A DNA stretch of 33,001 bases from a virus (IMGVR_UViG_3300032229_000638:1-33001); one strand, 5' to 3'; shown: positions 1 to 16,200, counted from the stretch's first letter. Made by a program: numbers and translations. Notes: generated from the sequence alone by a model not told the origin.

Positions 1-2
1 AC

Positions 3-30
3 TTGACAAGTCTGTGTTCTCGACTAGATT
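3..30 (+). promoter_or_regulatory. sigma70-type promoter (TTGACA-16 bp-TAGATT)
   Basis: Perfect -35 TTGACA at 3-8 and -10-like TAGATT at 25-30, upstream of ORF 76..264. Confidence 0.6.
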
Positions 31-75
31 ATACATGTATCGAGATCTCGATACACATACACACATCTAGACGCC

Positions 76-264
76 ATGGAAACCGCATTCGTCACTCCCA
101 AAAGCCGTAAGGCGCACAATCGCTTTGCAAACCTGATGGATCATGATGACATGTGCATCATTGAGCAACATGCAGGCACACGTGTATTCCTAACATCATC
201 TAACGGTCGGAATCACTTCTGGGTTGATACAATTAGTGATCCAGACTGGGACATCGACTTCTAG
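76..264 (+). CDS. Small hypothetical phage protein (62 aa)
   Basis: ATG start, promoter upstream, terminator downstream; V-x-P-K-S-x-K-A-x-N-R-F-x-N-x-M...FWV...D-x-D-W pattern reminiscent of small cyanophage proteins. Confidence 0.8.
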   Translation: METAFVTPKSRKAHNRFANLMDHDDMCIIEQHAGTRVFLTSSNGRNHFWVDTISDPDWDIDF

Positions 265-281
265 GATACCACAAACAAAAC

Positions 282-308
282 AAAAGCGGGATTAATCCCG
301 CTTTTTTT
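282..308. terminator. Bidirectional intrinsic terminator
   Basis: Perfect 24-bp palindrome AAAAGCGGGATTAATCCCGCTTTT (282-305), T-run on the right, A-rich run on the left. Confidence 0.85.
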
Positions 309-333
309 CATATCTTTTTATAATTATTTTTAA

Positions 334-385
334 GCAGGTTCGGTGGCGATGTATTGTCGTCCGCAGGGATACCTCTCCCCTCATT
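334..385. ncRNA. Putative structured non-coding element, copy A
   Basis: Block-conserved with 2388-2438 (GCAGG, GGTGGCGA, CGTC, GGG, ACC, CCCCTCATT), compensatory stem changes, leftward -10 at 397-402. Confidence 0.5.
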
Positions 386-430
386 TGATTTCTTATAAAA
401 TAGCACAAATCCGGTCAGAATCCAGGACCG

Positions 431-491
431 TGTGCCAGTTCTTCTAGTGGCACAAAGCCCCTGGCGGTGGTCGGTTCTGGGGTGCCATCAT
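431..491 (+). promoter_or_regulatory. Early-type promoter: 24-bp palindrome 1 plus -10 (possibly also fires leftward)
   Basis: TGTGCCAGTTCTTCTAGTGGCACA (431-454); TG-c-CATCAT with -10 at 486-491, 31 bp downstream; minus-strand TG-c-TATTTT at 402-397, 28 bp away. Confidence 0.7.
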
Positions 492-534
492 TCCGTCAAC
501 GGCGCACCACCGACGCCGCAACCACCCCAGACCG

Positions 535-1008
535 ATGATCACTGCAACTTTCGACCAACTGGTTTCTGAAGCCATCGCTCGCCAAGTTGAGTCGTTTCTG
601 AGTGCACAAACCAGCGCCTACAATTTGTTCATGAAAGAACAACAACAGGAGCGCGATTATTTCATCGAACAAACCAAGATTGCAACTCCATTTAATCTCT
701 TCATGGTGTTGACTCTCACTGAAACTTTCGGTAAGGAAACTTCTCATGAGATTGTTTCTCTGCTGGATGAATGTCGGCAAATGGGTGATTATCACTATTT
801 TGTTGGTGCATACCAACTGATTGATCGTAACAATGTTGAGCATCGCCAACTGTTGCTCACTGCGAGTAAAGTTTACCGCTACAAATTTGGCAGCGGTAGC
901 AATCAAAACTCTCTGAAGTCTGAGATTAAATATGCTACAATGTGCCCCCATTGTGGTTCTCTCGCTTCTAAGATGGTCGATCGCCTGAAAGCAGAGGGTC
1001 TCTGGTGA
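535..1008 (+). CDS. Hypothetical early protein with C-terminal CPHC motif (157 aa)
   Basis: ORF directly behind palindrome promoter 1 and an ACCACCCC leader; stop codon lies inside palindrome 2. Confidence 0.8.
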   Translation: MITATFDQLVSEAIARQVESFLSAQTSAYNLFMKEQQQERDYFIEQTKIATPFNLFMVLTLTETFGKETSHEIVSLLDECRQMGDYHYFVGAYQLIDRNNVEHRQLLLTASKVYRYKFGSGSNQNSLKSEIKYATMCPHCGSLASKMVDRLKAEGLW

Positions 1009-1064
1009 CAATTTGTTAAGTGTCCACTGTGGGGGTGGCACGTGCCATCCCCATGCCCTATACT
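1004..1064 (+). promoter_or_regulatory. Early-type promoter: palindrome 2 plus -10 TATACT
   Basis: GGTGACAATTTGTTAAGTGTCCAC (1004-1027); TATACT at 1059-1064, 31 bp downstream. Confidence 0.75.
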
Positions 1065-1099
1065 ATGGGAGTCGTCAGGGGATCACCCCACACCACACC

Positions 1100-1843
1100 A
1101 TGCTGAACCTTTCCAACGGCAACGGCAAACTCGCCAACGACACTCTGATCTTTAATCTGCCGGCCGGCAAAACCTGCCCCGGTGCAATGTATTGCAAGTC
1201 TTTTGCTGTCGTTGATGATAACGGCAAGCGTAAGATTCAGGATGGAGAGTATACTGAATTCCGTTGTTTTGCTGCATCGTCTGAAGTACAATATGATGCA
1301 GTTTATAACAACCGTGCTCACAATCTGCAACTGATTGTTGATGCTCTGAAGAATGGATCTGCTGCTGATTTGATTCATGATTCCATCCAACACAATCGGA
1401 CTCGCAAGACTTCTAAAGTTCGCATTCATGAGTCTGGTGACTTCTTTTCTGGCGCTTATCTTGACGCTTGGATTGAAGTTGCAAACCGCAATCCTGATCT
1501 GAAGTTCTACTGCTATTCTAAGAGTTTGCAGTTCTTCTATCTTCTCAAGTTGCCTGCAAACTTCTACATGACCGCATCTTATGGTGGCAAGTTTGATTAT
1601 ATGATCGATGAAGGTTACTTCCCCCGTTATAGCAAAGTCGTCATGAATGAGGAGGATGCTGCTAACTTGGGTCTGGAAGTTGATCATGATGATTCACACT
1701 GTTTCGGTGAAAAACCGTTTGCACTGTTAGTGCACGGGACGCAACCTAAAGGTTCACTCTGGGGTGCGGCAATTCGTATCCGTCGCGCTGCAAACAAGTT
1801 CGGCGGATATAACAAAAAGAACCGCCAGACTGTGACAGTCTGA
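1100..1843 (+). CDS. GP88-family (radical-SAM-like, Cys-rich) protein, 247 aa
   Basis: Motifs FNLPAGKTCPGAMYC, FRCFAA, VRIHESGDFFS, YLDAW, FYCYSK match my recollection of phage GP88-domain proteins. Start moved from 1013 to ATG 1100 because the promoter lies inside the longer ORF. Confidence 0.75.
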   Translation: MLNLSNGNGKLANDTLIFNLPAGKTCPGAMYCKSFAVVDDNGKRKIQDGEYTEFRCFAASSEVQYDAVYNNRAHNLQLIVDALKNGSAADLIHDSIQHNRTRKTSKVRIHESGDFFSGAYLDAWIEVANRNPDLKFYCYSKSLQFFYLLKLPANFYMTASYGGKFDYMIDEGYFPRYSKVVMNEEDAANLGLEVDHDDSHCFGEKPFALLVHGTQPKGSLWGAAIRIRRAANKFGGYNKKNRQTVTV

Positions 1844-1891
1844 TAAGTGGCACAGGGGGGACTTCCATCCCCCCTTCCTGGCCTCTATACT
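1831..1891 (+). promoter_or_regulatory. Early-type promoter: palindrome 3 plus -10 TATACT
   Basis: TGTGACAGTCTGATAAGTGGCACA (1831-1854); TATACT at 1886-1891, 31 bp downstream. Confidence 0.75.
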
Positions 1892-1915
1892 GATCTCAGT
1901 TCACCACACCACCCG

Positions 1916-2176
1916 ATGAACTTCTCTGCTCTCACCCGTGCCGCCGTCCGCGCCACCCTGATTCAGAACGGTCCCCAAACCTGCTCCGCCATTGTGCGCG
2001 GCATGGGATTGGATCCTAAGCGTCACAAGGGCACCATTCACGCTATCATGGTAGACATGGAGCGGGACGGGATCCTAGATGCTACCCGATCCGATAATGG
2101 CAAGCGGGATGAATGGTTCATCCTGCCAGAGGCAATCCGTAAGCGTGACCGCCTGATCGCTGCCCTGATCGGATGA
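1916..2176 (+). CDS. Winged helix-turn-helix DNA-binding protein (FaeA/Z-alpha-like fold), 86 aa
   Basis: Helix-GPQT-helix-GL-helix-xExDGIL-beta wing ending in W; start moved to ATG 1916 behind the promoter and a CACCACACCAC leader. Confidence 0.7.
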   Translation: MNFSALTRAAVRATLIQNGPQTCSAIVRGMGLDPKRHKGTIHAIMVDMERDGILDATRSDNGKRDEWFILPEAIRKRDRLIAALIG

Positions 2177-2183
2177 TACAATC

Positions 2184-2212
2184 GGGGGGAGCATTCTCCC
2201 CCCTTTCTTTTT
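2184..2212 (+). terminator. Intrinsic terminator
   Basis: GGGGGGAG-CATT-CTCCCCCC followed by TTTCTTTTT. Confidence 0.85.
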
Positions 2213-2385
2213 AATCTAGTCTAGATTAATCTCGACTAGATTATTCGCATCATTCACACATTCATTCTATCAATCTAGTCTAGATCACACACATATCATA
2301 TAATCTAGTCTAGATCATATTATAATATCATATATTCATATTATCATATAACACTAGTGTTATATCATCTAGTTCATATAATTAC
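2213..2385. repeat. AT-rich tract with repeated CTAG palindromes
   Basis: AATCTAGTCTAGAT at 2213, 2272 and 2302; variant AATCTCGACTAGATT at 2228; perfect palindrome ATATAACACTAGTGTTATAT at 2346-2365. Confidence 0.8.
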
Positions 2386-2387
2386 GC

Positions 2388-2438
2388 GCAGGGTGGGTGG
2401 CGACCGTTTGCGTCAACGGGGCGACCCTGCCCCTCATT
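2388..2438. ncRNA. Putative structured non-coding element, copy B
   Basis: Homologous to 334-385; lies just downstream of the leftward promoter (TATAAT at 2457-2452). Confidence 0.5.
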
Positions 2439-2451
2439 CGCTTGTGTCCGT

Positions 2452-2511
2452 ATTATACGCATTGGAAATCCTGCAAAACCCGCATTGGTGGACAGTTTGC
2501 AAACTGGCACA
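2452..2511 (-). promoter_or_regulatory. Inverted early-type promoter: palindrome 4 plus -10 TATAAT
   Basis: Minus strand TGTGCCAGTTTGCAAACTGTCCAC (2511-2488) and consensus TATAAT 30 bp downstream (2457-2452). Confidence 0.7.
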
Positions 2512-2612
2512 AGACCGAATCGAACGCATCTGCCATCCTAGCACGTCCCCCGTCCCCTGCACAATCCCCCCTGCCCATAAGATTCCCTGATCGTTTCTTA
2601 AGATTTTCTTCC

Positions 2613-2670
2613 TGGCATTTGGCGCCGGTGTGCGCCACACTTGCCGCAGGTTCGATCCCTGCCATGCCTG
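2613..2670 (+). other. tRNA-like element (T-arm plus partial acceptor stem, only one further hairpin)
   Basis: GCAGG-TTCGATC-CCTGC at 2646-2662; GGCAT (2614-2618) pairs with ATGCC (2664-2668); GGCGC-CGGTGT-GCGCC hairpin at 2621-2636; too short for a canonical tRNA. Confidence 0.35.
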
Positions 2671-2773
2671 CCCTGCTGCTGATGCCCGATCCCGTCGCAT
2701 CTGAGAATCAATCCGAATGTGAAGCAAACCTAAAGGGTCGCCTGCCCGATTCTCATGAGATCGCCACTGAGAC

Positions 2774-2832
2774 TGTGCCAGTTTCTGAACTGTCCATTCA
2801 GACACGCTGGCGGGGTCGATCCCTGGCAGACT
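2774..2832 (+). promoter_or_regulatory. Early-type promoter: palindrome 5 plus extended -10
   Basis: TGTGCCAGTTTCTGAACTGTCCAT (2774-2797); TG-g-CAGACT with -10 at 2827-2832, 29 bp downstream. Confidence 0.65.
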
Positions 2833-2885
2833 GAGCACAGCGAAGGGGAGAGATCCCTGACGCAATCCAAACCACACCTAAGATC

Positions 2886-3182
2886 ATGACCGTCACCTAT
2901 CACGTTCCGACCGCAGATCAGTTCCGTCTGTTGAGCGTTGCGGTTGATTCCAGTGCTATAGCCCGTCTGGCAATTGTGCTGGATAATGATAACATCCCCC
3001 ATCTGTTGGTGATGTTTAACAGCAACCCAGATAAAGTTTACCGTTATATTTTTGAGGATGAGGGTGCTGCTCATCGTTGGCACGAATTGCTGAACGATGA
3101 TGATGCAAAGGCAGCAACATCATGGGGGTATGAGTTTAATCGTGCACTGAAGCATGGTGACATCGAAACGATCGACGTTTGA
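2886..3182 (+). CDS. KTSC-like domain protein (98 aa)
   Basis: SSAI...L-x-V-x-F...Y-x-Y...S-x-G-x-x-FN pattern typical of KTSC domains; ACCACACC leader. Confidence 0.6.
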   Translation: MTVTYHVPTADQFRLLSVAVDSSAIARLAIVLDNDNIPHLLVMFNSNPDKVYRYIFEDEGAAHRWHELLNDDDAKAATSWGYEFNRALKHGDIETIDV

Positions 3183-3189
3183 TCACATC

Positions 3190-3217
3190 GGGGGGACAAT
3201 TCTCCCCCCCATTCTTT
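3190..3217 (+). terminator. G/C-run hairpin (weak terminator or processing/stabilising stem)
   Basis: GGGGGGA-CAATTC-TCCCCCC followed by an interrupted T tract. Confidence 0.5.
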
Positions 3218-3241
3218 CCACAAACCACACCTAATCTGATC

Positions 3242-3379
3242 ATGCTCGGCTTTACAATCCGTTTCCAATCTCCCTACAATTCTTGTGAATGGAGAACGCA
3301 AACGTTTCCTACACTTGATGAGGCAGAACGTATGGTTGCGTTCTATCTTACTTGTGGTGTTCGTGCACATTTAATCTGA
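3242..3379 (+). CDS. Small hypothetical protein (45 aa, MLGFTIRFQSPY...)
   Basis: Start reassigned from 3179 to ATG 3242, which carries the ACCACACC...TGATC-ATG leader. Confidence 0.7.
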   Translation: MLGFTIRFQSPYNSCEWRTQTFPTLDEAERMVAFYLTCGVRAHLI

Positions 3380-3415
3380 TACCAATTCTTTACACTCTCA
3401 AACCACACTTTGATC

Positions 3416-3583
3416 ATGGAAATGTATCTCACCCCTGATGAGATTCTGCAACTGGTGACAACCGGTGTTTGCACTCTCACTGATGATCTGATGATCAGAT
3501 TAACGCCTAATGTATCAGAATCTTATGAGGATTCTGATTGGTACAATGATCCAAACAATGTGATGAGTAAATATCACTATTGA
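3416..3583 (+). CDS. Small acidic hypothetical protein (55 aa, ends WYNDPNNVMSKYHY)
   Basis: Translated by hand (below the ORF-track cutoff); ACCACACT-TTGATC-ATG leader. Confidence 0.7.
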   Translation: MEMYLTPDEILQLVTTGVCTLTDDLMIRLTPNVSESYEDSDWYNDPNNVMSKYHY

Positions 3584-3588
3584 TGATC

Positions 3589-3726
3589 ATGAAACGTTAC
3601 TTTTCTCTGCTCATTGTGATGTTATCATTGTGGGCAACACTTCTCTCTCACATTGTCATTCAAGCGGAGCAGAATCTAAAACAGTATGATGCTCAGTTTG
3701 CAAAGATGGCCCGTGGTATAAAGTAA
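3589..3726 (+). CDS. Small membrane or secreted protein (45 aa)
   Basis: Translated by hand: MKRYFSLLIVMLSLWATLLSHIVIQAEQ...; basic N-terminus plus hydrophobic stretch; in-frame alternative ATG at 3583 overlaps the previous stop. Confidence 0.6.
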   Translation: MKRYFSLLIVMLSLWATLLSHIVIQAEQNLKQYDAQFAKMARGIK

Positions 3727-3731
3727 CTGAT

Positions 3732-3828
3732 GCACAGTTAGTTACACTTTACTGGGGGATCATAGGGTCGTGGTGTGGTGCCTTACTCTCTACAGATCCC
3801 CCTCTAAAGTGTAACTAACTCACTGTGC
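3732..3828 (+). ncRNA. Long hairpin, candidate antisense/regulatory RNA
   Basis: Perfect 15-bp arms AGTTAGTTACACTTT (3736-3750) / AAAGTGTAACTAACT (3806-3820); 8-bp GGGGGATC/GATCCCCC; apical GTGGTGTGGTG (3770-3780) complementary to the early-gene leaders. Confidence 0.5.
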
Positions 3829-3883
3829 CAGTCACCGGACTGTCCACCGGCCCCCTGGCATCCCGGCAATGATGCCCTATGAT
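3824..3883 (+). promoter_or_regulatory. Early-type promoter: palindrome 6, CTGGCA-17 bp-TATGAT
   Basis: TGTGCCAGTCACCGGACTGTCCAC (3824-3847); -35-like at 3855-3860; -10 at 3878-3883, 30 bp downstream. Confidence 0.75.
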
Positions 3884-3937
3884 ATGAACAAGCGGGGGGG
3901 AGAGATCCTCACCGCCAAACCACACCCGAGACCCATC

Positions 3938-4195
3938 ATGCTCACCGCTGAAACGTGTTTCAAGTCCCCTGAGTTCATCACATTTTGTGAGGAAGTAGAG
4001 CGTGAATGTGAGAAAGTATTTTCCAACAATTATGCTTCACCTTCCTACTGTTTTGATGATGGTTGGCAACTCGAATTGATTCTGGAATTGTATAACAATG
4101 GTTGTCCGATTCCTGATGCTGTGAATGAAATGTGTGAGGGTATTGAATCTGAGGCAATTGATGCCTATTTGTCTACTCCACCCTGGGATCGCTGA
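3938..4195 (+). CDS. Acidic hypothetical early protein (85 aa)
   Basis: Start reassigned from 3869 (inside the promoter) to ATG 3938 after the ACCACACC leader; very Glu/Asp-rich. Confidence 0.75.
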   Translation: MLTAETCFKSPEFITFCEEVERECEKVFSNNYASPSYCFDDGWQLELILELYNNGCPIPDAVNEMCEGIESEAIDAYLSTPPWDR

Positions 4196-4204
4196 TTCAC
4201 ATTT

Positions 4205-4232
4205 AGGGGGAGACAATCCTCCCCCTTTCTTC
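4205..4232 (+). terminator. G/C-run hairpin (weak terminator or processing/stabilising stem)
   Basis: AGGGGGAG-ACAATC-CTCCCCCT followed by TTCTTC. Confidence 0.55.
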
Positions 4233-4258
4233 ACTCTAACCACACCGCAATTCTGATC

Positions 4259-4573
4259 ATGACAACCGCAACCCTGAACGGCAATCCTACAATCAAGTGG
4301 GAGTATTCTGGTCTGGAAGATACAGTTAAGGTGCTGATGATGATCAACCGCAATGGTCACCAGAACGCCGAAACAATGGCATCCTACATTAGAACAATCG
4401 CCTACAATTATGCTTGCAAGTGTGAATGTTATGGTGAGCGTCCTTCGATGACAGGAACTGGCGGCTGGTACGTTACACTTATCGCAGATGAATCGGAGGA
4501 TTATGATTATGTTGCTGAGGTCACTCTGATGCCTTATGTTGTTGCAAAGCACCTAGGATTAAGGGAGGTTTGA
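4259..4573 (+). CDS. Hypothetical early protein (104 aa)
   Basis: ORF with ACCACACC...TGATC-ATG leader. Confidence 0.8.
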   Translation: MTTATLNGNPTIKWEYSGLEDTVKVLMMINRNGHQNAETMASYIRTIAYNYACKCECYGERPSMTGTGGWYVTLIADESEDYDYVAEVTLMPYVVAKHLGLREV

Positions 4574-4580
4574 TATACTT

Positions 4581-4615
4581 TAGGGGCGGCAGTTGTTTAT
4601 ACTCTGCCGCCCTTA
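4581..4615 (+). terminator. GC-rich hairpin closing the early region
   Basis: GGGCGGCAG (4584-4592) / CTGCCGCCC (4604-4612); poor U tail. Confidence 0.5.
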
Positions 4616-4801
4616 TATTCGTTCGTGCGTTATAGCAGTTCCCGCCGTGTTTGGGGGCGCCCGTATAAAAACCCATGACTCCCCTAACCTACAAAGTGTT
4701 ACGGACGCGATCGATCTATAAGACTCATATCATTTCAAAAAACCGGGGGCCAAAATTTATGATAAAATACCTTATGATCTAAAAAATTTTCCCAGAAAAA
4801 A

Positions 4802-5050
4802 ATGGCCCGTAGACCTCAACCAACATATCGCCCCCAGAACATGTGCTGGTCATGTTGGTACACATGGTATCCGCGTGGCAAAGATTATTCACTGAGATGT
4901 CCCAATTGTGGATCATCGAGAACTGGACCTGATATCACACTATTCATTGTACTACTTGGACTGGTCGGGATATACTTTGCAATTGCATACTGGTATATTG
5001 TAATACCTGCATGGATCTTTCTATTTTTGATTTCCAAAATTGCAAAATAA
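4802..5050 (+). CDS. Zn-ribbon plus transmembrane small protein (82 aa)
   Basis: CWSC...CPNCG then a long hydrophobic C-terminal segment. Confidence 0.7.
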   Translation: MARRPQPTYRPQNMCWSCWYTWYPRGKDYSLRCPNCGSSRTGPDITLFIVLLGLVGIYFAIAYWYIVIPAWIFLFLISKIAK

Positions 5051-5091
5051 TATATAATTTGAGAAAATCAAAATATTGTGTGTATAAACAA

Positions 5092-5259
5092 ATGAGAAAA
5101 AATGAAAATTCTTTTCAATCAGTTCAGGTAGACCCCATCACCGGCGAATACTATGTTATAATTCCTGAGTGGATCGCAAACGAACTTTCATGGTATGAAG
5201 ATACCGAAATCAAGTTTACTCTTGATGGAAATGAAGTGGTGCTATCCGAAAAAAACTAA
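5092..5259 (+). CDS. AbrB/MazE/SpoVT-family DNA-binding protein (55 aa)
   Basis: GEYYVIIPEWIANELSWYEDTEIKFTLDGNEVVLS fits the swapped-hairpin pattern (IP...L-x-W-x-x-(G/D)...I); start reassigned to ATG 5092. Confidence 0.7.
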   Translation: MRKNENSFQSVQVDPITGEYYVIIPEWIANELSWYEDTEIKFTLDGNEVVLSEKN

Positions 5260-5263
5260 CATC

Positions 5264-5292
5264 TTGACAAGGACTATATAATGAGTTATGAT
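5264..5292 (+). promoter_or_regulatory. sigma70-type promoter TTGACA-17 bp-TATGAT
   Basis: Consensus -35 at 5264-5269 and -10 at 5287-5292. Confidence 0.8.
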
Positions 5293-5314
5293 TCTGATGT
5301 AATCGCTTTCTATT

Positions 5315-6076
5315 ATGGCTAAAGGATTTACTGTTAAAGCAAAAGCACCGGTTGCACCAAAGCAACAATCTGAGGAGTGGGATTATGATTTAGCACGAGA
5401 AATGATTCGTGGTAAGTCCGTTGTATTCTGTCTTCCTGGAAGAGGTGTTTCATATACGTTTTTAAAGAGTTTTGTACAACTTTGTTTTGATCTTGTACAG
5501 AACGGAGCTAATATTCAAATCTCGCAAGATTATTCCTCGATGGTTAATTTTGCACGTTGCAAGTGCCTTGGTGCGAATGTTCTTGCAGGTCCTGATCAGA
5601 TTCCCTGGCAAGGTAAACTGGCATATGACTATCAACTCTGGATTGACTCTGACATTGTGTTCAATTCCGAGAAGTTCTTCCAACTCGTTCTGTTAGATCA
5701 AGATATTTCTGCAGGTTGGTATTGCACTGAAGATGGTCACACAACTTCTGTTGCACACTGGTTGGAAGAGGATGACTTCCGTAACAATGGTGGAGTCATG
5801 AATCATGAAACTCTGGAGAGCATTCAGAAGCGTCGTAAGCCTTTCACGGTTGACTACACTGGTTTTGGATGGCTTCTGATTAAGAAGGGTGTCTTTGAGC
5901 ATTCTGAGATGAAGTATCCTTGGTTTGCACCGAAGATGCAAGTTTTCGAATCTGGGCAAGTACAAGACATGTGTGGTGAAGACGTTTCTTTCTGTCTCGA
6001 TGCAAAAGATGCAGGATTCGAAATCTGGTGCGATCCACGCATTCGTGTTGGTCATGAGAAGACTCGCGTAATCTGA
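5315..6076 (+). CDS. GT-A fold (GT2-like) glycosyltransferase, 253 aa
   Basis: WIDSDIVF (DxD), GFGWLLIKKGVFE, GEDVSFC and IWCDPRIRVGH motifs. Confidence 0.8.
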   Translation: MAKGFTVKAKAPVAPKQQSEEWDYDLAREMIRGKSVVFCLPGRGVSYTFLKSFVQLCFDLVQNGANIQISQDYSSMVNFARCKCLGANVLAGPDQIPWQGKLAYDYQLWIDSDIVFNSEKFFQLVLLDQDISAGWYCTEDGHTTSVAHWLEEDDFRNNGGVMNHETLESIQKRRKPFTVDYTGFGWLLIKKGVFEHSEMKYPWFAPKMQVFESGQVQDMCGEDVSFCLDAKDAGFEIWCDPRIRVGHEKTRVI

Positions 6077-6231
6077 TGGCAAAATACGATATTCTTTGTA
6101 AAGGACGTAAAATTTATACAAATCTTACGGAAGAAGAATACTTCGATACAATGGAGGACCTGGCAATTGAGTATTATCAGTCAGGTTCTCCTCATCCCAA
6201 CGACCTTGAAACCGAAATTATTGGAGATTAA
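6076..6231 (+). CDS. Small acidic hypothetical protein (51 aa)
   Basis: Translated by hand: MAKYDILCKGRKIYTNLTEEEYFDTMEDLA...; TGATG overlap with the upstream stop. Confidence 0.75.
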   Translation: MAKYDILCKGRKIYTNLTEEEYFDTMEDLAIEYYQSGSPHPNDLETEIIGD

Positions 6232-6233
6232 TT

Positions 6234-6380
6234 ATGGCAGTTAAAAAATCACTGAGTGGTTCGAAGAGTAAAATTGAATCGAAACCCAAAAAGACCTTGC
6301 AGGGCATGGGTGCTCATACTAAGTATTCCGCAACGTCTCGCAATGGGGCTAAAAAACGGTACAGAGGTCAAGGGCGATGA
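6234..6380 (+). CDS. Small basic protein ending KRYRGQGR (48 aa)
   Basis: Translated by hand; GGAG SD at 6223-6226; YRGQG C-terminus recalled from many phage small basic proteins. Confidence 0.75.
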   Translation: MAVKKSLSGSKSKIESKPKKTLQGMGAHTKYSATSRNGAKKRYRGQGR

Positions 6381-6499
6381 CCACACCCAAGAAACCTAAA
6401 AAGAATCCAACTTTTGGAAATGGAGATCGACGTAAGGCCACTGGTCAGTGTCGATCCACCGCCCAAAAAAATGCATCAAACAAGAGAAAAACAAAATAA
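6377..6499 (+). CDS. Small Lys/Arg-rich protein (40 aa)
   Basis: Translated by hand: MTTPKKPKKNPTFGNGDRRKATGQCRSTAQKNASNKRKTK; ATGA overlap; followed by a terminator. Confidence 0.6.
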   Translation: MTTPKKPKKNPTFGNGDRRKATGQCRSTAQKNASNKRKTK

Positions 6500-6504
6500 T
6501 TCTC

Positions 6505-6533
6505 AAATCCCGCTCTTAGGAGTGGGATTTTTT
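6505..6533 (+). terminator. Intrinsic terminator
   Basis: AAATCCCGCTC-TTAG-GAGTGGGATTT plus T-run. Confidence 0.85.
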
Positions 6534-6565
6534 ATAAGTATTTCTAAGAATTGAAAAATATTCAT

Positions 6566-7165
6566 ATGTATTGCACAGATGTGGGAACTGAATGGAGACA
6601 CATTCATCCTGAGGATCTTTGGGTTTACAATAAGTTGATCTTAAGTACCCGTTTGGGGTATACCTGTGGTCCTGCAGGTCTTGTAGTGCCTTATCCTGGG
6701 TCTTATGTGGTGCGTCCTTGTATGAATTTACTCGGAATGGGGCGCTTTGCTCGTATCGAATTTATCTCTAGAACGACAGAACACTTACATCCAGCTGAAT
6801 TTTGGTGTGAAAAGTTTTTTGGTGAACACATCAGTGTTGATTTCCACAAAAAGAAAGCAGATTTAGTTGTTAAAGGAACAAAAGATGTTCAAAATCCTCT
6901 TTATAAGTGGGAGAAGTGGGAAAAAATTGATAAAAATGTGAATTTTCCTGAAATTTTGCAAAATTTAGTCGGTAACTATGAATGGATTAACTGTGAATTT
7001 ATTGAAAATAGTCTAATTGAAGTTCACTTTCGCAGAAATCCTGATTTCCGACACGGAAATTCTGTCGCACTACCAGTTTGGGATGATGAAAATTTAGAAA
7101 ATGCTGACAATTACTCTTATATTAATGACCCGGACTACAAGAGAAAAGGATTTTTTGTAAAATAA
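6566..7165 (+). CDS. Phage protein with ATP-grasp-like motifs (~199 aa)
   Basis: YVVRPCMNLLGMG, WCEKFFGEHISVD and INCEF...IEVHFR resemble ATP-grasp motifs; ATG 6566 preferred over TTG 6551; late-like TATAAGTA at 6533-6540. Confidence 0.6.
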   Translation: MYCTDVGTEWRHIHPEDLWVYNKLILSTRLGYTCGPAGLVVPYPGSYVVRPCMNLLGMGRFARIEFISRTTEHLHPAEFWCEKFFGEHISVDFHKKKADLVVKGTKDVQNPLYKWEKWEKIDKNVNFPEILQNLVGNYEWINCEFIENSLIEVHFRRNPDFRHGNSVALPVWDDENLENADNYSYINDPDYKRKGFFVK

Positions 7166-7200
7166 ATAACAAGTTAATAAAATTCAAAGGGTATGAGGAA

Positions 7201-7542
7201 TTGGAAAGGTTTTCAATGGGAAATCACCTCTTGTTAGAGGTTTATGACGTAAAACATTGCCTATTAAATGATGGCAATACACTAGTCGAAGTCATGAAAA
7301 GGGGAATAGAACGTGCCCAGATGACCATTTTAAACGTGTTTAAACACGAATTTGAACCACAAGGCGTAACCATAGTTATCGCCCTATCAGAGAGTCATGT
7401 ATCGTGCCACACATGGCCTGAAGAAGGATCCATTGCTATAGACGTATACACCTGCGGTGCAGGAAAACCAAAATTAGTTGCACTAGAACTTTTAAAATAC
7501 TTGGAATCAGACAACTATAAAATTCGTCATTTAGATCGTTAA
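7201..7542 (+). CDS. speD: S-adenosylmethionine decarboxylase proenzyme (pyruvoyl-dependent, class 1B)
   Basis: GNHLLLE, FEPQGVT, LSESHVSCHTWPE (E-S self-cleavage site) and DVYTCG motifs; start is TTG 7201 or ATG 7216. Confidence 0.93.
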   Translation: MERFSMGNHLLLEVYDVKHCLLNDGNTLVEVMKRGIERAQMTILNVFKHEFEPQGVTIVIALSESHVSCHTWPEEGSIAIDVYTCGAGKPKLVALELLKYLESDNYKIRHLDR

Positions 7543-7550
7543 ATAGTAAT

Positions 7551-7606
7551 AAGGAGATAGCAACCTCCTTTATAAAAGTTCTGTTTTTAATTTAAAAACA
7601 GGAGCT
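7551..7606 (+). promoter_or_regulatory. Tandem hairpins occluding the SD of ORF 7610
   Basis: AAGGAG/CTCCTT stem (7551-7570) and CTGTTTTTA-ATT-TAAAAACAG stem (7581-7601) overlapping AGGAG at 7600-7604. Confidence 0.55.
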
Positions 7607-7609
7607 AAC

Positions 7610-7858
7610 ATGTCTAACGGCAAAGTTGATAGAAATCGTGAATACATGAGACAAATGTGGGGGACCACAAGTCTTGTAACAGACTATACACCTCAGCATG
7701 ATTCGTCACAAAGAGTTATTCAAGAAATTATGCACGATTATGCACCAAAGCATGATCTAAAAAAACAAACTGATCTTCATGAAAAAATTCGCAATGATCA
7801 AGACTATGATGATTGGGAATATGGAACTGAACCATCTTATGGATCTGCCTGGAAATAG
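7610..7858 (+). CDS. Hypothetical protein (82 aa)
   Basis: ORF with AGGAG SD; sits directly upstream of gp25. Confidence 0.8.
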   Translation: MSNGKVDRNREYMRQMWGTTSLVTDYTPQHDSSQRVIQEIMHDYAPKHDLKKQTDLHEKIRNDQDYDDWEYGTEPSYGSAWK

Positions 7859-7859
7859 G

Positions 7860-7867
7860 CATAAATA
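7860..7867 (+). promoter_or_regulatory. T4-type late promoter (CATAAATA)
   Basis: Near-match to TATAAATA 20 bp upstream of gp25; similar ATAAATA boxes at 7162, 10109 and 23754. Confidence 0.65.
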
Positions 7868-7887
7868 ACTGAAGAATTTTATGTAAA

Positions 7888-8289
7888 ATGGCAGTCGAAA
7901 GGATATCTAGATCATTTAAAGATATTAGTTTATCCTTTGTACCGCATCCCGTAACAAAGGATCTACCGGTGCTGCTTAATGAAAATGCAATTATAAGATC
8001 GGTTCGTAATCTTGTAGAGACGATCCCTGGAGAAAGATTCTTTAATCCATTTTTAGGATCTAAAGTGAGATCGTCTCTATTTGATTTTGTAGATTATGGT
8101 ACAGCATCTGTTATTCAAACAGAAATACTTGATACTATTTCAAACTTTGAACCACGAGTACAAAATGTAACTGTAATTGTGAATCCGGAACCGGATTTAA
8201 ATTCCTTTGAAGTTACAGTTAAGTTTGAAATTATTGGTCAACCAGTGCCAGCACAACAATTTACATTTTTACTAGAGGCAACAAGATAA
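7888..8289 (+). CDS. gp25: Baseplate wedge subunit gp25
   Basis: AIIRSVRNLVETIPGERFFNPFLGS...FEPRV motifs of GPW/gp25; synteny. Confidence 0.95.
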   Translation: MAVERISRSFKDISLSFVPHPVTKDLPVLLNENAIIRSVRNLVETIPGERFFNPFLGSKVRSSLFDFVDYGTASVIQTEILDTISNFEPRVQNVTVIVNPEPDLNSFEVTVKFEIIGQPVPAQQFTFLLEATR

Positions 8290-10220: not shown

Positions 10221-13200
10221 ATGATACAAACTGGGTTTGACACTAGAATTAAAGTACAGCAGATAATTGAGAATCAACTTCCGGAATTTATAATTGATGA
10301 AAATCCAAATGCTTCTGAATTTTTAAAGCAATATTATACTTCACAGGAGTATCCTGGAGGAACAACGGACATTGTTGAAAATTTAGATCAATATTTAAAA
10401 ATTGATGTTTTAAGTTCTGGCGTAATTGATAACACAACCAAACTATATTCTGGAATTTCTTCAACTACAACAGAAATTACTGTTGCATCAACTAAAGGAT
10501 ATCCACAAAAATATGGATTATTGAATATTGGTAATGAAATAATCACATACACTGGAATTGCAGGAAGTACTTTCACCGGATGTATTCGTGGATTTAGTGG
10601 CATTACCAGTTATCATAGTCCAAATGACCAAGAAGAATTAGTTTTTTCAACTTCTAGTAGAAATCCTCATGCTGTTGGGACAGCAGTTACAAACTTAAGT
10701 GCACTATTTTTAAAGGAATTTTATAAAAAAACTAAGTATTCTTTTGCTCCAGGATTAGAAAATGTTGACTTTATTTCACAATTAAATGTTGCTAATTTCA
10801 TAAAGAGTGCAAAGGAATTTTATCAGTCAAAAGGAACTAAAGAATCTTTTAGAATTTTATTTAATATTCTTTATGGAGTTAGTCCAACTGTATTAAACCT
10901 AGGAGAACTTCTAATTAGACCATCTGCAGCTTCTTATTTAAGAAGAGAAGAAGTTGTTGCGGAAAGAATATCTGGTGATCCTTCTAAAATTGTAGGTCAA
11001 ACAATTGTAAAATCTACCGATCCCGCAACCACAGCGTCAGTATCTCAGGTTGAAATTTTTACCGCAGATAACAAGCAATATTATAAACTTTCTTTATTCG
11101 TTGGTTATGAAGAAAGTTCTGCAATTACTGGTACTTTTACAATTCCGGGTAAAACAAAAGTTGTAGAAAAGGTTTCAATTGGATCTTCAGTTGTTACTGT
11201 AGATTCAACCATTGGTTTCCCACAATCCGGAACTTTGATTTGCAATAAAAATATTATCAATTATTCTGATAGAAGTATTAATCAGTTCTTTGGATGTTCT
11301 GGTATTACGAGTTCTATTCTTCCATCTGATGATATTCGTATTAATGAAACCGTTTATGCGTATGAAGATGGTGATCTTTCAAGAAAAGTAGAATTAAGAA
11401 TTACGGGTGTTTTATCTGGATTTGTTCAAGAAACAAATAATATTTCTATTAGCGAAAATGAAGAAATTTTTGTTAAAAACTTAGGGCAAATTATTACTAA
11501 TGCTCAAGATTCTAACAAAGACTATAAAAATATTTTTGCAAATGCTTGGATTTATAATACTAGTTCTAGATATAAAATTAGTCAAATTAGTGGTTCAACA
11601 TTTACTCTTTCTAGTAAAATTGATAAATCAAGTTTAAAAGAAGGGGACAAAATAGAAATTTTATTTAGAGGTACTGAAAATCTAGCATCTTCTATCCTAA
11701 ATGAACCATTTATTCAAAGTATAGATGCTGCAAATAATCAAGTTATCATCGGAAATAATGATGGATTTGTTTATAATCAAAATCTTGAATATGATTTGAG
11801 AAGAAAAGTAAGCACTGTAAAAAGTAGTGGAGCACCTATTGAATTTGGAAATAATCTTTTAACTTCTGATATACAAAATGTTTATGTCGATGATCAGCAA
11901 AATCAAATTTATGTGGCATCTGGAAGTCTGCCATCATATACAATAGAAAAAAATCTTTTTAAATCAATTATTCCAGAAGCCACTGGTTCAAAAAGTCAAA
12001 GTGAACAAGGAAAAGGATATTTACAAGGATTTGAAGATGAATCTCAAACATTTTCAATAATTTCATTCCCAGATCCAGTTCCATTTATTCGTGGAGATGA
12101 AGTTTTTTATATTCCAGAATCAAAAACAATACCACTTTTAGATAGTGGAGAAATTTATTATGTCGATGTAATATCATCAAACAAAATTAGACTTTATAGA
12201 TCAAGATCCTTAGTAGGATCTTCAGAATATGTAAAATTTAGATCTCTCGATGCTAAAACTGGTTCTCAAACTTTTATTTTAAATTCCCAAAGATTTCAAT
12301 TTATTTCTTCTCAAAAACTTTTAAGAAAATTTAATTTGAATCAAAATACGGAAAGTACTGGAGAAGAAACTAAATCTGGAACTGTCGGTATTTTAATTAA
12401 TGGTGTAGAAATTCAAAATTATAAGTCTGATGACAAAGTTTATTATGGTCCATTAACATCCGTTAAAGTTTTAAATGGTGGAAAAGATTATGATGTTATT
12501 AATCCTCCCGTACTAGAAGTTACTACAGGAACAGGAGTTACTGCATTAATTCAACCAGTTTTAGAAGGATCCGTAAAAAATATTTTAGTTGATCCACAAG
12601 ACTTTGATTTAAATACCGTCGTTTCTGTTGCTGTTACTGGAGGTAATGGAACAGGAGCTCTTTTACAACCTATTATTCAAAAAAGAAGAAGAGAAGTATC
12701 TTTTGATGCTAGACAAATTAGTGGTACTTCTGGTGGTTTGGATATTAACAATGACACTATTACATTCTTAACCAATCATAATTTTAATACAGGAGATTCT
12801 GTAATTTATGATTCCAATGGAAATAATCCTATAGGTATAGCAACAAATTATTCAAATACTTTTGATCAAGGCATATATCTTGCCTCTAATGGAATTTATT
12901 ACATTTCAGTAGTAAATAACAAAACTATTCAATTATTTAATTCAAAATCAAATGCCATTGCTGGTGTCAATACTGTTCCTTTTTCAGTAGCTAACAATAA
13001 TGGTATTCATAAATTCAAATCAGGAGTAATTAGAAATACTATTAGTGAAATTAAAGTAATTAATGGTGGAACTGGATATACTAATCGTAAATTAATTGTA
13101 AAACCTTCTGGTATTTCTACATTTAATCACACTGTTAATTTTATAAATCATGGATTTAATGAAAAAGATTTAATTGTTTACAATTATGAAACTAGTCAAA

Positions 13201-16200
13201 TTTCTGGGTTGTCAACATCAGTATATTATTATGTCTCTAAATTGGATGAAGATTCTTTTAGATTATACAATGCAGGATTGGGAGGAACTGATGCAACCAA
13301 CTATTCTAGAAAAAGTAATGTACTTTTTACTGGAATAGGATCAGGATATCAATATTTTAGTTATCCACCAATTACTGTTACAGCTAATATTGTTCCAGTA
13401 GGAATAGGATCTTCTACACCAACTTCATTAACAGCAACAGCATCTGTAAGGGGAAAAATTATTGATGTTTATTTGTATGAAAATGGTACTGGATATGGAT
13501 CAAATATCCTGAATCTGGAGAAAAAACCACTGATCAAAGTTAAAAAAGGATCTGATGCAAAATTTACTCCAGTTGTAATTAATGGAAGAATAGAATCGGT
13601 CAATGTTGCTTATGGTGGATATAATTATTATTCTGTTCCAGATGTTGAAGTTCAGGGAACTGGAGATGGTTGTATTGTTAGACCAGTAATTAAAAATGGA
13701 AAAATTGTAAGTGCAGTAGTGGTTAATCCCGGTTTTGGATATACTGCTAGCAATCTTAGTTTTAAAATTACACCTGCAGGGTCTGATGCGGTTTTTGAAG
13801 CATCTGTCAGATCACTGACAGTTAACTCTAATTTTAAATATGGTGATGAAGTTATTATAAAATCTCAATACAACAGAAACTTAGAATATAGTGTATCTGG
13901 TTACTTTGATAAACTTAAAACCAATTTTAATGACACTAATCAAAATAATCATTCTCCAATAATTGGATGGGCTTATGATGGAAACCCAATTTATGGACCT
14001 TTTGGGTATTCAGATCCAAAAGATACTGGATCTTCTGTAAAGATTATTAATTCTGGTTATGAATTAAATGCATCAAATATTATTGATAGACCATCTGGAT
14101 TTGATGCTGGATTCTTTGTTGAGGATTATATTTTTAGAAATAGTGGAGATCTTGATGAATCTAATGGAAGATTTACAAAAACTCCAGAATTTCCCAGCGG
14201 TGTCTATGCATATTTTGCTGGAGTTACTACTAGTGCAACAGTAAGCAACGAGTTAATAAGTCGGTTCCCTTATTTTATTGGAAATAAATTTAGATCAAAG
14301 TTTATTCAAGATAATCTTATCTTAACTCAAGAATATGATTTTAATAATTCAAATTTAATCAGAAATACTTTTCCATATAAATTAAACGATTCTAATGCTT
14401 CAAATGATTTTATTATTGAATCAGCAAAGAAAATACCTCAAAAATGCGTTGTAAAATCAGTAACTAAAGGATCAATTGAAAATCTCAGAATAATTAGTGC
14501 TGGTCAGGATTATAAAATAGGAGATTTGATTGATTTTGATAATTCATTTACTGGTGGTGGTGGATTAAGTGCAGAGGTATCAAAAATTGAAGGAAAAGAT
14601 ATCTTTAGAATTAACACAAATATACAAAACTATAATAATGCAATTGTTACTTGGGAAAATGAAAATCAAGTTAGAGTTAATATTCTTCCTGCACATAATT
14701 TAATTCAGAATGACAATGTTATAATTTCTGGATTAACTACTAATATTGGCAGTATTAATGGATTTTATAATATTGGATTTAGTTCTTATTCAACATCAAT
14801 TGCTAAAACTGTAAGTGCATCTCCATCTGCTGGACTAGTAACAGATATTTACTTCTTAAGTCTTCCACCAAAAGTTACAATTGGTAGTAGTATTTCAATT
14901 GGAGTAGGAACTGATATATTCAGAGTTTTAAATATATTTCCTGAACAAAAAGTTATTAGAACTCAAAGAATTAATGCTGGAGCAGCACTTTCTGCAACAA
15001 CATTTGCTGGATTTACACCAAATTCTTTTGTAGTTAATAAAAAAACTAATTATTTTGAATCAAAATTAAATGATGTTGTATATTTCAATCCTTTGGAAAC
15101 TGTGGGATTTGGAGTAACAACCACTGTTGGTATAACTTCAAATACTACATTTGTATTTGCTGGATTAACGACAATTAGATCAATTCCTTTAAGATCAATT
15201 TATATTGAAAATCATCCATTTGTTGATAATCAACAAGTTACAATTAGTTTGCCTGATAATTCATATTCTCCATTATCAGTATCAACTTCTTTTGGCGGAT
15301 CGGTATTTACTATTCCATCTGGTTCAATTTCAACAACAGTTTATATTGCAAATAAAACTAAAGATACAATTGGAATTAGAACTCAATTAAATTCTCCAGA
15401 AGTATTTTTCTCTCCAAATACTTCTGGAACCTTTAATAGTTATTTTTATTCTTTAACTTCGAACTTTAAACAATCTTTAGGAAAAGTACAAAAAATTCAA
15501 GCAGTAGTTTCTACAGCCACCACACATGGATTAACTGACGGTGATAGTATTGATCTATTTGTAACACCCAATCTTTCTGTTGGTATTGGAACTTCCACCT
15601 CAGTAAAAATTAGATATGATTCTTCCAGACAAAAAGTTTTAGTTAATCCTTTAACTTTTGGGAGTGCAGGTATTAATACCCTTTCAGATACTATTACTAT
15701 TAGATCTCATGGATTTGTAACTGGAGATAAAGTTGCATATGTAGGTATTTCTACCATTGCTGCACCTACAGGCATTACTACAAGTGATTATTATGTATTG
15801 AAAATTGATGATGATACTTTCCAATTGTGCCAAACCTATAATGATACCCAATCTAATCCACCATCAATAATTGATATACAAGATCAAGGGGGTGCACTAC
15901 AACAATTATCATTAATCAATCCTCAAATTTCTGTAATTAAAAATAATGATTTAGTTTTTGATGTAAGTCATCCATCTCTTAGAGGTTACAATCTTAAGTT
16001 TTACTATGATAATGCATTCAAAAATGAATTTGTATCTATTGGAAACACCACTATTTTTGCAGTCTCTGGTGTAGGTACTATCGGAGTATCAACCAATGCT
16101 CAAGTTAAATTAAGATATTCCTCTGGAATGCCAGTTTACTTGTACTATAATTTTGAAAAGTCTGGTTTTATTAGCACAGCAGATTCTGATGTTTCTAATT

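Follow-up and report, generated by a model that had tools for sequence, protein, structure and literature searches.

A leader word before the start codons of small cassette genes in a putative T4-like cyanophage contig, and a conserved hairpin whose loop is predicted to pair with it

The DNA analysed here is the IMG/VR record IMGVR_UViG_3300032229_000638, a linear viral contig of 33,001 nucleotides (nt) that was taken whole as the window and is about 15% complete according to CheckV. Judged by its genes, it is a fragment of a T4-like freshwater cyanomyovirus: the closest isolate is the freshwater Synechococcus phage S-SRM01 (Kyanoviridae), with 65% identity in gp6 and 76% between the GP88-family gene at 1100–1843 and its S-SRM01 counterpart, and the gene neighbourhood of S-SRM01 matches that of the window. 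The right-hand 25 kb, with a GC content of about 30%, encode speD and the baseplate proteins gp25, gp6 and gp8. The first 4800 nt are a block of small genes, presumably a hyperplastic, early region; its genes may be called early from the presence of sigma-70-like –10 boxes in the block and the absence of T4-type late boxes (ATAAATA), none of which lies before 7162 and which are present only from there onward. Two elements of this block concern us, a short word, ACCACACC, that stands just before most of the start codons, and a 96 nt hairpin at 3733–3828 whose loop carries the complement of that word. The features are as follows.

1–4800, + strand: GC-rich block (44–51% GC) of small one-gene cassettes inside a contig of about 30% GC
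500–518, + strand: small leader hairpin CGGCG-CACCACCGA-CGCCG (–8.3 kcal/mol, z –2.1), a near-homologue of a hairpin in relatives
521–528, + strand: leader variant ACCACCCC, 6 nt upstream of the ATG at 535
1092–1099, + strand: ACCACACC, abutting the ATG at 1100 of the GP88-family gene; CACCACACCA here is a 10 nt complement to the hairpin loop
1903–1910, + strand: ACCACACC, 5 nt upstream of the ATG at 1916, after TATACT (1886) and CAGTTCAC
2871–2878, + strand: ACCACACC, 7 nt upstream of the ATG at 2886
3224–3231, + strand: ACCACACC, 10 nt upstream of the ATG at 3242, after a terminator-like G6/C7 stem-loop at 3190–3209
3402–3409, + strand: variant ACCACACT, 6 nt upstream of the ATG at 3416
3733–3828, + strand: two-tier long hairpin of 96 nt, candidate anti-leader RNA, with an apical region at 3761–3794 that contains GUGGUGUGGUG (3770–3780)
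3772–3779, – strand: the sole reverse-strand ACCACACC, read on the gene strand as GGTGTGGT
3919–3926, + strand: ACCACACC, 11 nt upstream of the ATG at 3938, 3' of the promoter-like site 3855–3883
4239–4246, + strand: ACCACACC, 12 nt upstream of the ATG at 4259, after a stem-loop at 4206–4224

A preliminary description of this DNA, made from the sequence alone, had reported the word and its variants ACCACACT (3402) and ACCACCCC (521), and every coordinate that it gave is correct. Its inventory of + strand copies (1092, 1903, 2871, 3224, 3919, 4239 and 6380) stands, but the reverse copy at 3772–3779 had been overlooked. Against these eight exact copies, 100 dinucleotide shuffles of the window gave 0.53 on average and never more than 3; the six + strand copies within 1–4800 compare with 0.094 expected, six being reached in none of 1000 shuffles. 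Either ACCACACC or a one-base variant lies 0–12 nt before eight of the nine start codons between 535 and 4573, the exact copies at distances of 0, 5, 7, 10, 11 and 12 nt from the ATG. When each leader was shuffled separately, the degenerate form ACCAC(A/C)C(C/T), present at –30 to –1 in eight of the nine leaders, occurred in a mean of 0.35 of nine and in at most 4 in 5000 rounds, and the exact word, present in six of nine, in a mean of 0.17 and at most 3; the earlier claim of a motif shared by eight of nine genes is thus borne out against composition-matched shuffles. The motif-less gene, 3589–3726, is the only open reading frame (ORF) of the block without a protein homologue in 77 related loci; same-strand homologues of nine of the ten block ORFs occur in relatives, where the gene order differs.

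The reverse copy at 3772–3779 forms the top of the hairpin at 3733–3828, which folds with a minimum free energy of –50.5 kcal/mol (z –6.7), and related loci with several leader copies nearly always have one reverse copy, in a hairpin of the same type. In an alignment of 15 such hairpins the loop GTGGTGTGGT is invariant (15/15), seven of 13 stem pairs show compensatory change, 92.3% of 195 cells pair, and the covariation score was reached by none of 500 shuffles. A covariance model built from these 15 (R1) detected the hairpin in 17 of 76 sources and scored the window at 32.9 bits. At least 120 loci in the viral collection matched the loop 14-mer; run on 100 of an estimated 300 or so stretches with this 14-mer, the model found the hairpin in 36, of which 22 were new and distinct. 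Homologous hairpins occur in 36 other distinct viral contigs. A second alignment used 28 of 37 sense-strand matches, the other nine, with stems of different length, being left out; it resolves two stacked helices in which 97.2% of 784 cells pair and eight of 28 pairs change on both sides, again with a covariation score that none of 500 shuffles reached, and an 11 nt stretch of the loop is invariant in all 28 copies. On the opposite strand the 33 G.U cells of this alignment would turn into A.C mismatches; one of the pairs is U.G in 18 of the 28 hairpins. Because the stems covary and the G.U pairs fit only that strand, the hairpin is a structure at the RNA level on the gene strand.

Searches gave no known family for it. 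With all families of Rfam release 15 and E-values up to 1, positions 1–8000 gave only sub-threshold and unrelated matches (tsr26 and L20_leader), and nothing, C4 included, fell near 3733–3828; among 50,697 records of cultured phages, blastn found nothing that matched the hairpin. Most relatives have a –10-like box 7–8 nt upstream of the stem, T runs come after some of the hairpins, and the small gene that precedes the hairpin in relatives is a homologue of 3242–3379. In related loci TTCTTTATACT is repeated four to six times per locus around the hairpin (e.g. L014:8800–9000 and L007:9800–10000), and its complement, AGTATAAAGAA, is the lower stem in one subfamily, so that alternative pairings are possible. 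A separate feature of L007, a locus of 12,738 nt, is a dense array of short tandem repeats in which the 9-mer GGTTACGGT occurs 39 times on one strand, with related 9-mers alongside.

The reverse complement of the loop is AACCACACCACTGAC, and the leaders hold different windows of it. The commonest register is ACCACACCAC(C/T); a second, CACACCACTGA, as in cagttCACACCACTGAaccATG, matches the loop without containing any ACCACACC, and so does a third, CACCACTGAC, which often forms the loop of a small hairpin with a CGGCG/CGCCG stem some 21 nt ahead of an ATG. To this last type belong the relatives of the hairpin at 500–518, whose loop CACCACTGA is a 10 nt complement to the 5' half of the big loop; cggcgCACCACTGACgccg is found in nine loci. 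In the leader of gene 1916 in the window, CACCACACCAC is an 11 nt complement to the hairpin loop. Across 15 loci, 93 sites on the + strand and 5 on the – strand are complementary over at least 9 nt to the 16 nt core of the loop, against 6.4 sites expected with composition-matched shuffled cores, and for 86 of the 93 the end falls within the 25 nt before an ATG or GTG that starts an ORF of 40 codons or more (positional background, 22%). Where the hairpin was found first, at least three same-strand sites were present in every one of the 14 new distinct loci that reached 6 kb (68 on the same strand, 3 on the other). The number of targets per locus ranges from 3 to 11, and sites are about five times denser in hairpin-bearing loci (107 in 187 kb) than in other loci (62 in 577 kb), several hairpin-negative loci with three or four sites ending before the place where the hairpin would be expected.

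The calculated energies favour pairing. Against the apical 34 nt of the hairpin, the nine block leaders of the window give duplexes of –17 to –30 kcal/mol (z –1.6 to –3.9), whereas most other genes give –10 to –14 kcal/mol, with z about 0 and no excess over shuffled loops. Opening the 10 nt anti-leader costs 1.5–4.6 kcal/mol, leaving a net –12.5 to –15.6 kcal/mol for a 10 bp duplex, and opening GUGGUG costs 0.02–0.2 kcal/mol in the seven relatives tested and 4.0 kcal/mol in the window. A 5' hairpin in the leaders of some relatives, GUUCA-CACCAC-UGAAC, was considered and set aside as weak and non-significant (–3.4 kcal/mol, z –1.0).

On balance we think it somewhat more likely than not that ACCACACC is the core of a leader lacking a Shine–Dalgarno (SD) sequence and the predicted pairing site of the conserved 96 nt hairpin RNA. 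The preliminary description had named an antisense RNA among the possible readers of the word, and that suggestion gains support from a conserved, covarying + strand hairpin with the complement in its loop. Several observations weigh against the pairing. Only three of eight leaders in the window pair with the loop over at least 9 nt, the other five over 8 nt, and one locus, L002, which shares with the window a GUCGUGG form of the loop, has the hairpin and no site of at least 9 nt. Because the loci are relatives of one another, their sites cannot be counted as independent events, and with a loop core that never changes, no compensation between loop and leaders could be seen. In hairpins of the L007 type the nearest –10-like box overlaps the lower stem, which makes the 5' end of the RNA uncertain. 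In L019 the loop segment TCAGTGGTGT recurs in tandem DNA repeats behind the hairpin, and none of the 21 sequencing runs listed as containing the window sequence is on record as RNA. Neither the whole genome of S-SRM01 (240,842 nt) nor two contigs rated complete (224 kb and 172 kb) contain the hairpin or a sense-strand anti-leader 10-mer, and all three keep CAGTTCAC(AC)CAC... leaders. Model R1 likewise found no variant-loop hairpins in other GP88 loci, S-SRM01 or the two complete-rated contigs, and an exact search for CAGTGGTGTG in S-SRM01 matched only the leaders themselves. Since hairpin-less relatives keep similar leaders, the leader does not need the hairpin. The repeats of L019 (8920–9125) are units of about 40 nt right behind the hairpin, in which TCAGTGGTGT corresponds to the loop's 5' half; they may provide further seeds for RNA pairing or act as binding sites on the DNA.

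The leaders belong to a recurring cassette, the anatomy of which we took from 80 fetched loci around homologues of the GP88 gene. The unit consists of a TGGCAC(A) box, a polyG/polyC stem-loop, a –10 box (TATACT, TAGGAT or TACAAT), five nucleotides, CAGTTCAC or AAGTCAAC, and a C/A-rich leader of 15–25 nt that runs into the ATG; if transcription starts 6–7 nt after the –10 box, the 5' untranslated region (UTR) would be only about 18–25 nt. A second form, type B, has a stem-loop with a T-rich tail followed by CACAAACCACACC and 7–14 bases, and no promoter was predicted in the two type-B cassettes at 3183–3241 and 4196–4258. The parts in the window are these.

1035–1064, + strand: promoter-like site GTGGCA-N18-TATACT before the GP88 gene (9/12 positions)
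1855–1879, + strand: polyG/polyC stem-loop of repeat family D1, with paralogues at 2184–2208, 3192–3216 and 4207–4231
1886, + strand: TATACT, the –10-like box before gene 1916
3855–3883, + strand: promoter-like site CTGGCA-N17-TATGAT a short way 3' of the hairpin (9/12 positions)
2882–2888, also 3238, 3412, 3585 and 4255, + strand: GATC-ATG junctions at the starts 2886, 3242, 3416, 3589 and 4259

Of the stem-loops at 1855, 2184, 3190 and 4206, three score as terminator-like (termination being predicted). Because the same spacing is kept behind a promoter or behind a terminator hairpin, the word is fixed relative to the start codon and not to the promoter. The box (A/G)NTGGCACA lies upstream of cassette stem-loops at 448, 1036, 1848, 2505 and 3078, with 4–11 copies per related locus; it is the –35-like hexamer of the sites at 1035 and 3855, and elsewhere it stands about 33 nt from the –10 box with the stem-loop between. 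Parts of the cassettes are paralogous (repeat families D1 and D5–D8), and the segment 3810–4238, which comprises gene 3938–4195 and its promoter and is bounded by the hairpin and the ACCACACC copy at 4239, is replaced by 618 unrelated letters in three contigs (X2, X3 and X9, from three runs in three studies, P2–P4), the right-hand boundary falling exactly at that copy. In locus L014 gene 3938 has its homologue on the upstream side of the hairpin. The paralogous parts, the differing gene order and this exchange are signs of gene shuffling at the cassettes.

The closest known thing to these cassettes appears to be the PeSL (promoter-early stem-loop) of T4-type coliphages and vibriophages (RB49/phi1, T4/PST and KVP40/nt-1), in which an early promoter, a polyG/polyC stem-loop, an SD sequence and the ATG follow one another and which mediates gene shuffling (PMC2839356, PMC4122927). 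As far as the available text of these papers goes, the likeness lies in repeated composite intergenic units of about 60–100 bp in a hyperplastic region of a T4-like phage (PMC2839356, PMC4122927), in a terminator-like polyG/polyC stem-loop and a sigma-70-like promoter, the latter as predicted sites in the window, leading to the start signals of a small ORFan, and in units that flank genes differing in presence or order among close relatives. In the window, too, the composite is repeated (D1, D5–D8) next to baseplate genes. Within the same limits, the PeSL differs in ending in an SD sequence, which is found in none of the nine window leaders, these being C/A-rich and G-poor with ACCACACC in its place; further differences are the –35 part, here a TGGCAC(A) box that the stem-loop often parts from the –10 box, and the host, here a cyanobacterium. 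A complementary hairpin RNA is not mentioned in the available text of the PeSL papers (PMC2839356, PMC4122927).

One explanation does without pairing. ACCACACC might be no more than the form taken in one lineage by a generic short, C/A-rich, SD-less 5' UTR, kept uniform as cassettes are copied and recombined in the manner of PeSL; the hairpin would act in termination, in stability or as an RNase III site, and its match to the leaders would stem from an inverted cassette piece or serve another partner. The cassettes are indeed paralogous and swapped between strains, the lower stem of the window hairpin (GTTACACTTTA...GGGGG) resembles the stem-loops of type-B cassettes, T runs stand after some hairpins, and leaders of this kind persist in relatives without the hairpin, the complete S-SRM01 genome among them. 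Drift would be expected of an inherited inverted copy, however, yet the loop is invariant in 28/28 hairpins while the stems compensate; it also matches registers without ACCACACC, its GUGGUG stays open (0.02–0.2 kcal/mol in seven relatives), and the sites are some five times denser where the hairpin is present. We therefore consider this account rather unlikely, if still deserving of serious attention.

The word could also act as DNA, a phage protein binding duplex ACCACACC/GGTGTGGT downstream of early transcription starts and repressing transcription, with the reverse site in the hairpin as one more operator. Read as duplex DNA, both orientations make one site, the word lies about 10–20 bp downstream of the –10 box in cassettes of the promoter type, and the tandem repeats with TCAGTGGTGT in L019 could be binding sites. 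The strand bias of 93 to 5 argues against an operator, as do the spacing from the ATG, which stays constant also behind terminator hairpins without a predicted promoter, the confinement of the single reverse copy to a hairpin loop, and the 33 G.U cells that work only as + strand RNA. A candidate binding protein, the 86 aa product of 1916–2176, was proposed from an unsupported reading of its sequence, and Pfam finds no DNA-binding family in it. We regard an operator as very improbable.

None of the nine block leaders has GGAG, GAGG, AGGA or AAGG at –20 to –4. The preliminary description was right that the block lacks SD sequences, but the contrast that it drew with the rest of the contig is weak, for only six of 15 other genes examined have a four-letter SD word, and a missing SD sequence therefore does not set the block genes apart. 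Its picture of an unstructured A/C-rich leader is sustained: the type-B leader 3210–3247 folds at 0 kcal/mol and the leader 1896–1921 at –1.7 kcal/mol, the nine leaders contain 30 G in 270 nt, and similar leaders occur in hairpin-less relatives. Cyanobacteria can start translation independently of SD sequences on unstructured leaders, and Escherichia coli has CA-rich translational enhancers. The window leaders are like these in being unstructured, G-poor and devoid of GGAG-type words, as are most other genes of the contig with respect to such words, and differ in conserving a specific word of 8–13 nt, beyond composition. Pairing of the leaders with 16S rRNA was considered with the E. coli molecule standing in for that of the host and gave nothing significant: three leader types have complements of 6 nt at most, and for the type-B leader an 8 nt complement, UGUGGUUU, lies at 950–957, about 0.2 such being expected by chance.

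The junction GATC-ATG, also described earlier at five starts (2886, 3242, 3416, 3589 and 4259), is real, GATCATG occurring seven times in 1–4800 against 0.85 expected (none of 1000 shuffles). With 0–6 copies per locus in relatives, it is specific to this lineage. A collection scan for AACCACACC-N0-14-GATCATG gave at least 120 loci, the 80 listed having a single match each, and was set aside as uninformative. A Dam-type role for GATC was rejected (45 occurrences against a Markov expectation of 44.5), and pairing of UGAUC-AUG with GAUCA of the 16S 3' tail (1530 in E. coli) was set aside, relatives mostly lacking the junction.

The preliminary description had seen in the word a class-wide translational address. 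As a shared signal before the starts at the RNA level this holds up, given the fixed distance to the ATG and the strand bias of 93:5, but the protein readers that it named gain no support. A repressor of the RegA kind, an endoribonuclease of the RegB kind or the host protein S1 might bind or cut CACCAC/ACCACACC on early mRNAs, the hairpin loop being unrelated or titrating a different factor. In T4, RegA is a translational repressor with AU-rich targets and RegB an endoribonuclease acting at GGAG sites; ACCACACC sits where the RegA operators and the RegB sites sit, T4-like cyanophages generally carry regA, and the leaders are G-poor and single-stranded. Binding of ACCACACC by a protein would not, however, extend to its complement, which leaves the conserved loop unexplained, and no RNA-binding family was detected in the ORFs scanned (23 plus the two giant ones with Pfam, 14 with PHROGs). 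The KTSC-like neighbour that had been suggested as reader gives no KTSC match in Pfam even at E-values up to 10, and PHROGs returns only families of unknown function. No RegA-like protein, and no homologue of regA or regB, was seen among the window ORFs, the contig being only about 15% of the genome, so a regA gene could lie outside it. We judge a protein reader quite unlikely. The anti-leader RNA would share with RegA and RegB a class-wide signal in the initiation regions of early mRNAs that lets one factor switch all of them off; it differs in that the proposed reader is an RNA and in that the signal is C/A-rich rather than AU-rich (RegA) or GGAG (RegB). All three accounts, of a leader alone, a protein reader and a DNA operator, seem to us less likely than an anti-leader RNA.

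An analogue is c4, whose loop pairs over the icd ribosome-binding site. Full repression of ant requires this antisense RNA of the immI operon of phages P1 and P7, which binds near icd (PMC8198154). To judge from the available text of that source, both are hairpin-borne phage antisense sequences on the same strand as their targets and complementary to an initiation region (PMC8198154), and both lie inside the operon region that they regulate or, here, would regulate. By our modelling, the exposed loop of the window hairpin is complementary to phage initiation regions on its own strand. There is no relationship in sequence or structure (no Rfam 15 match near 3733–3828 at E-values up to 1); the candidate has many targets (3–11 per locus) and c4, so far as the available text describes it, one operon; and P1 and P7 are temperate coliphages, whereas the window appears to come from a lytic T4-like cyanophage and its hairpin has a predicted function.

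Our working hypothesis has two layers. In the first, the C/A-rich, G-poor, unstructured leader would be the SD-independent start signal of the cassette genes in the cyanobacterial host, a role supported by its persistence in hairpin-less relatives. In the second, confined to one subclade that includes the window phage, a hairpin RNA of about 95 nt would co-regulate these leaders by loop pairing. The RNA could arise from the –10-like box just upstream or by processing of a read-through transcript of the preceding small gene; its always-open GUGGUG apex would nucleate on CACCAC/ACCACACC, the pairing would extend to 8–13 bp over leader positions –1 to –15, and ribosome entry would be blocked or the message exposed to RNases, turning the whole cassette set down together. 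A block of initiation is the most likely effect of pairing; protection from RNases (RNase E) is the alternative sign.

Other features of the window touch these elements less directly. The step in GC content from 44–51% (1–4800) to about 30% (8000–33001, structural genes) has a parallel in S-SRM01 (43–48% and 30–36%), and it is not an assembly chimera, because a contig from an independent run bridges 4205–5942. Megablast of 1–8000 against cultured phages gave no match, and no tRNA genes were found in the window. Two giant structural genes, 10221–22265 and 23859–31055, make up 58% of the contig; the 4014 aa protein has a YHYH domain and is annotated in S-SRM01 as baseplate wedge initiator, and the 2398 aa protein has DUF4815. 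Within the block, about 490 nt of GC-rich DNA (2380–2870) hold long ORFs on both strands (2397–2834, + strand; 2434–2877, – strand) without family match; this segment shares short conserved pieces with 343–534 and with relatives (GCGCAGGG... and TTGCGTCAACGG), and may be a structured RNA or a degenerate gene. The near-palindrome AATCTAGTCTAGAT(C/T)A (four copies) and the word TCTCGACTAGATTAT (two copies) lie in ORF-free DNA (2213–2317, 18–32 and 2230–2244), and ATCTCGACGAGAT has 5–10 copies per locus in relatives; these repeats resemble iterons or operators, such as those of an origin or a repressor.

A full-text literature search on cyanophage early genes, early promoters and non-coding and antisense RNAs found no published description of a leader/anti-leader pair or of a multi-target small RNA (sRNA) regulon in cyanophages. 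PeSL and c4 are known; what would be new is the combination of SD-less, PeSL-like cassettes with a c4-like antisense hairpin for many targets. The timing of early genes in T4-like cyanophages is poorly understood; these phages are not known to have the T4 middle-mode proteins, and their hosts rarely use SD pairing. The finding offers a defined, testable translation signal for the early cassette genes and a conserved candidate regulatory RNA that would address many mRNAs at once, and it ties the signal to the mobile cassettes that shuffle accessory genes among phages: a gene that recombined in behind the shared leader would fall under the same control at once. It is tempting to go further and to suppose that one hairpin RNA, about 95 nt long, acts as master switch for the early regulon of a cyanophage, shutting off most cassette genes together, co-evolving with the mobile cassettes and serving as the RNA counterpart of T4 RegA, a proposal that we advance tentatively and doubt a little more than we believe. 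If true, it would add a phage sRNA regulon with many targets to what is known of an ecologically important group of viruses.

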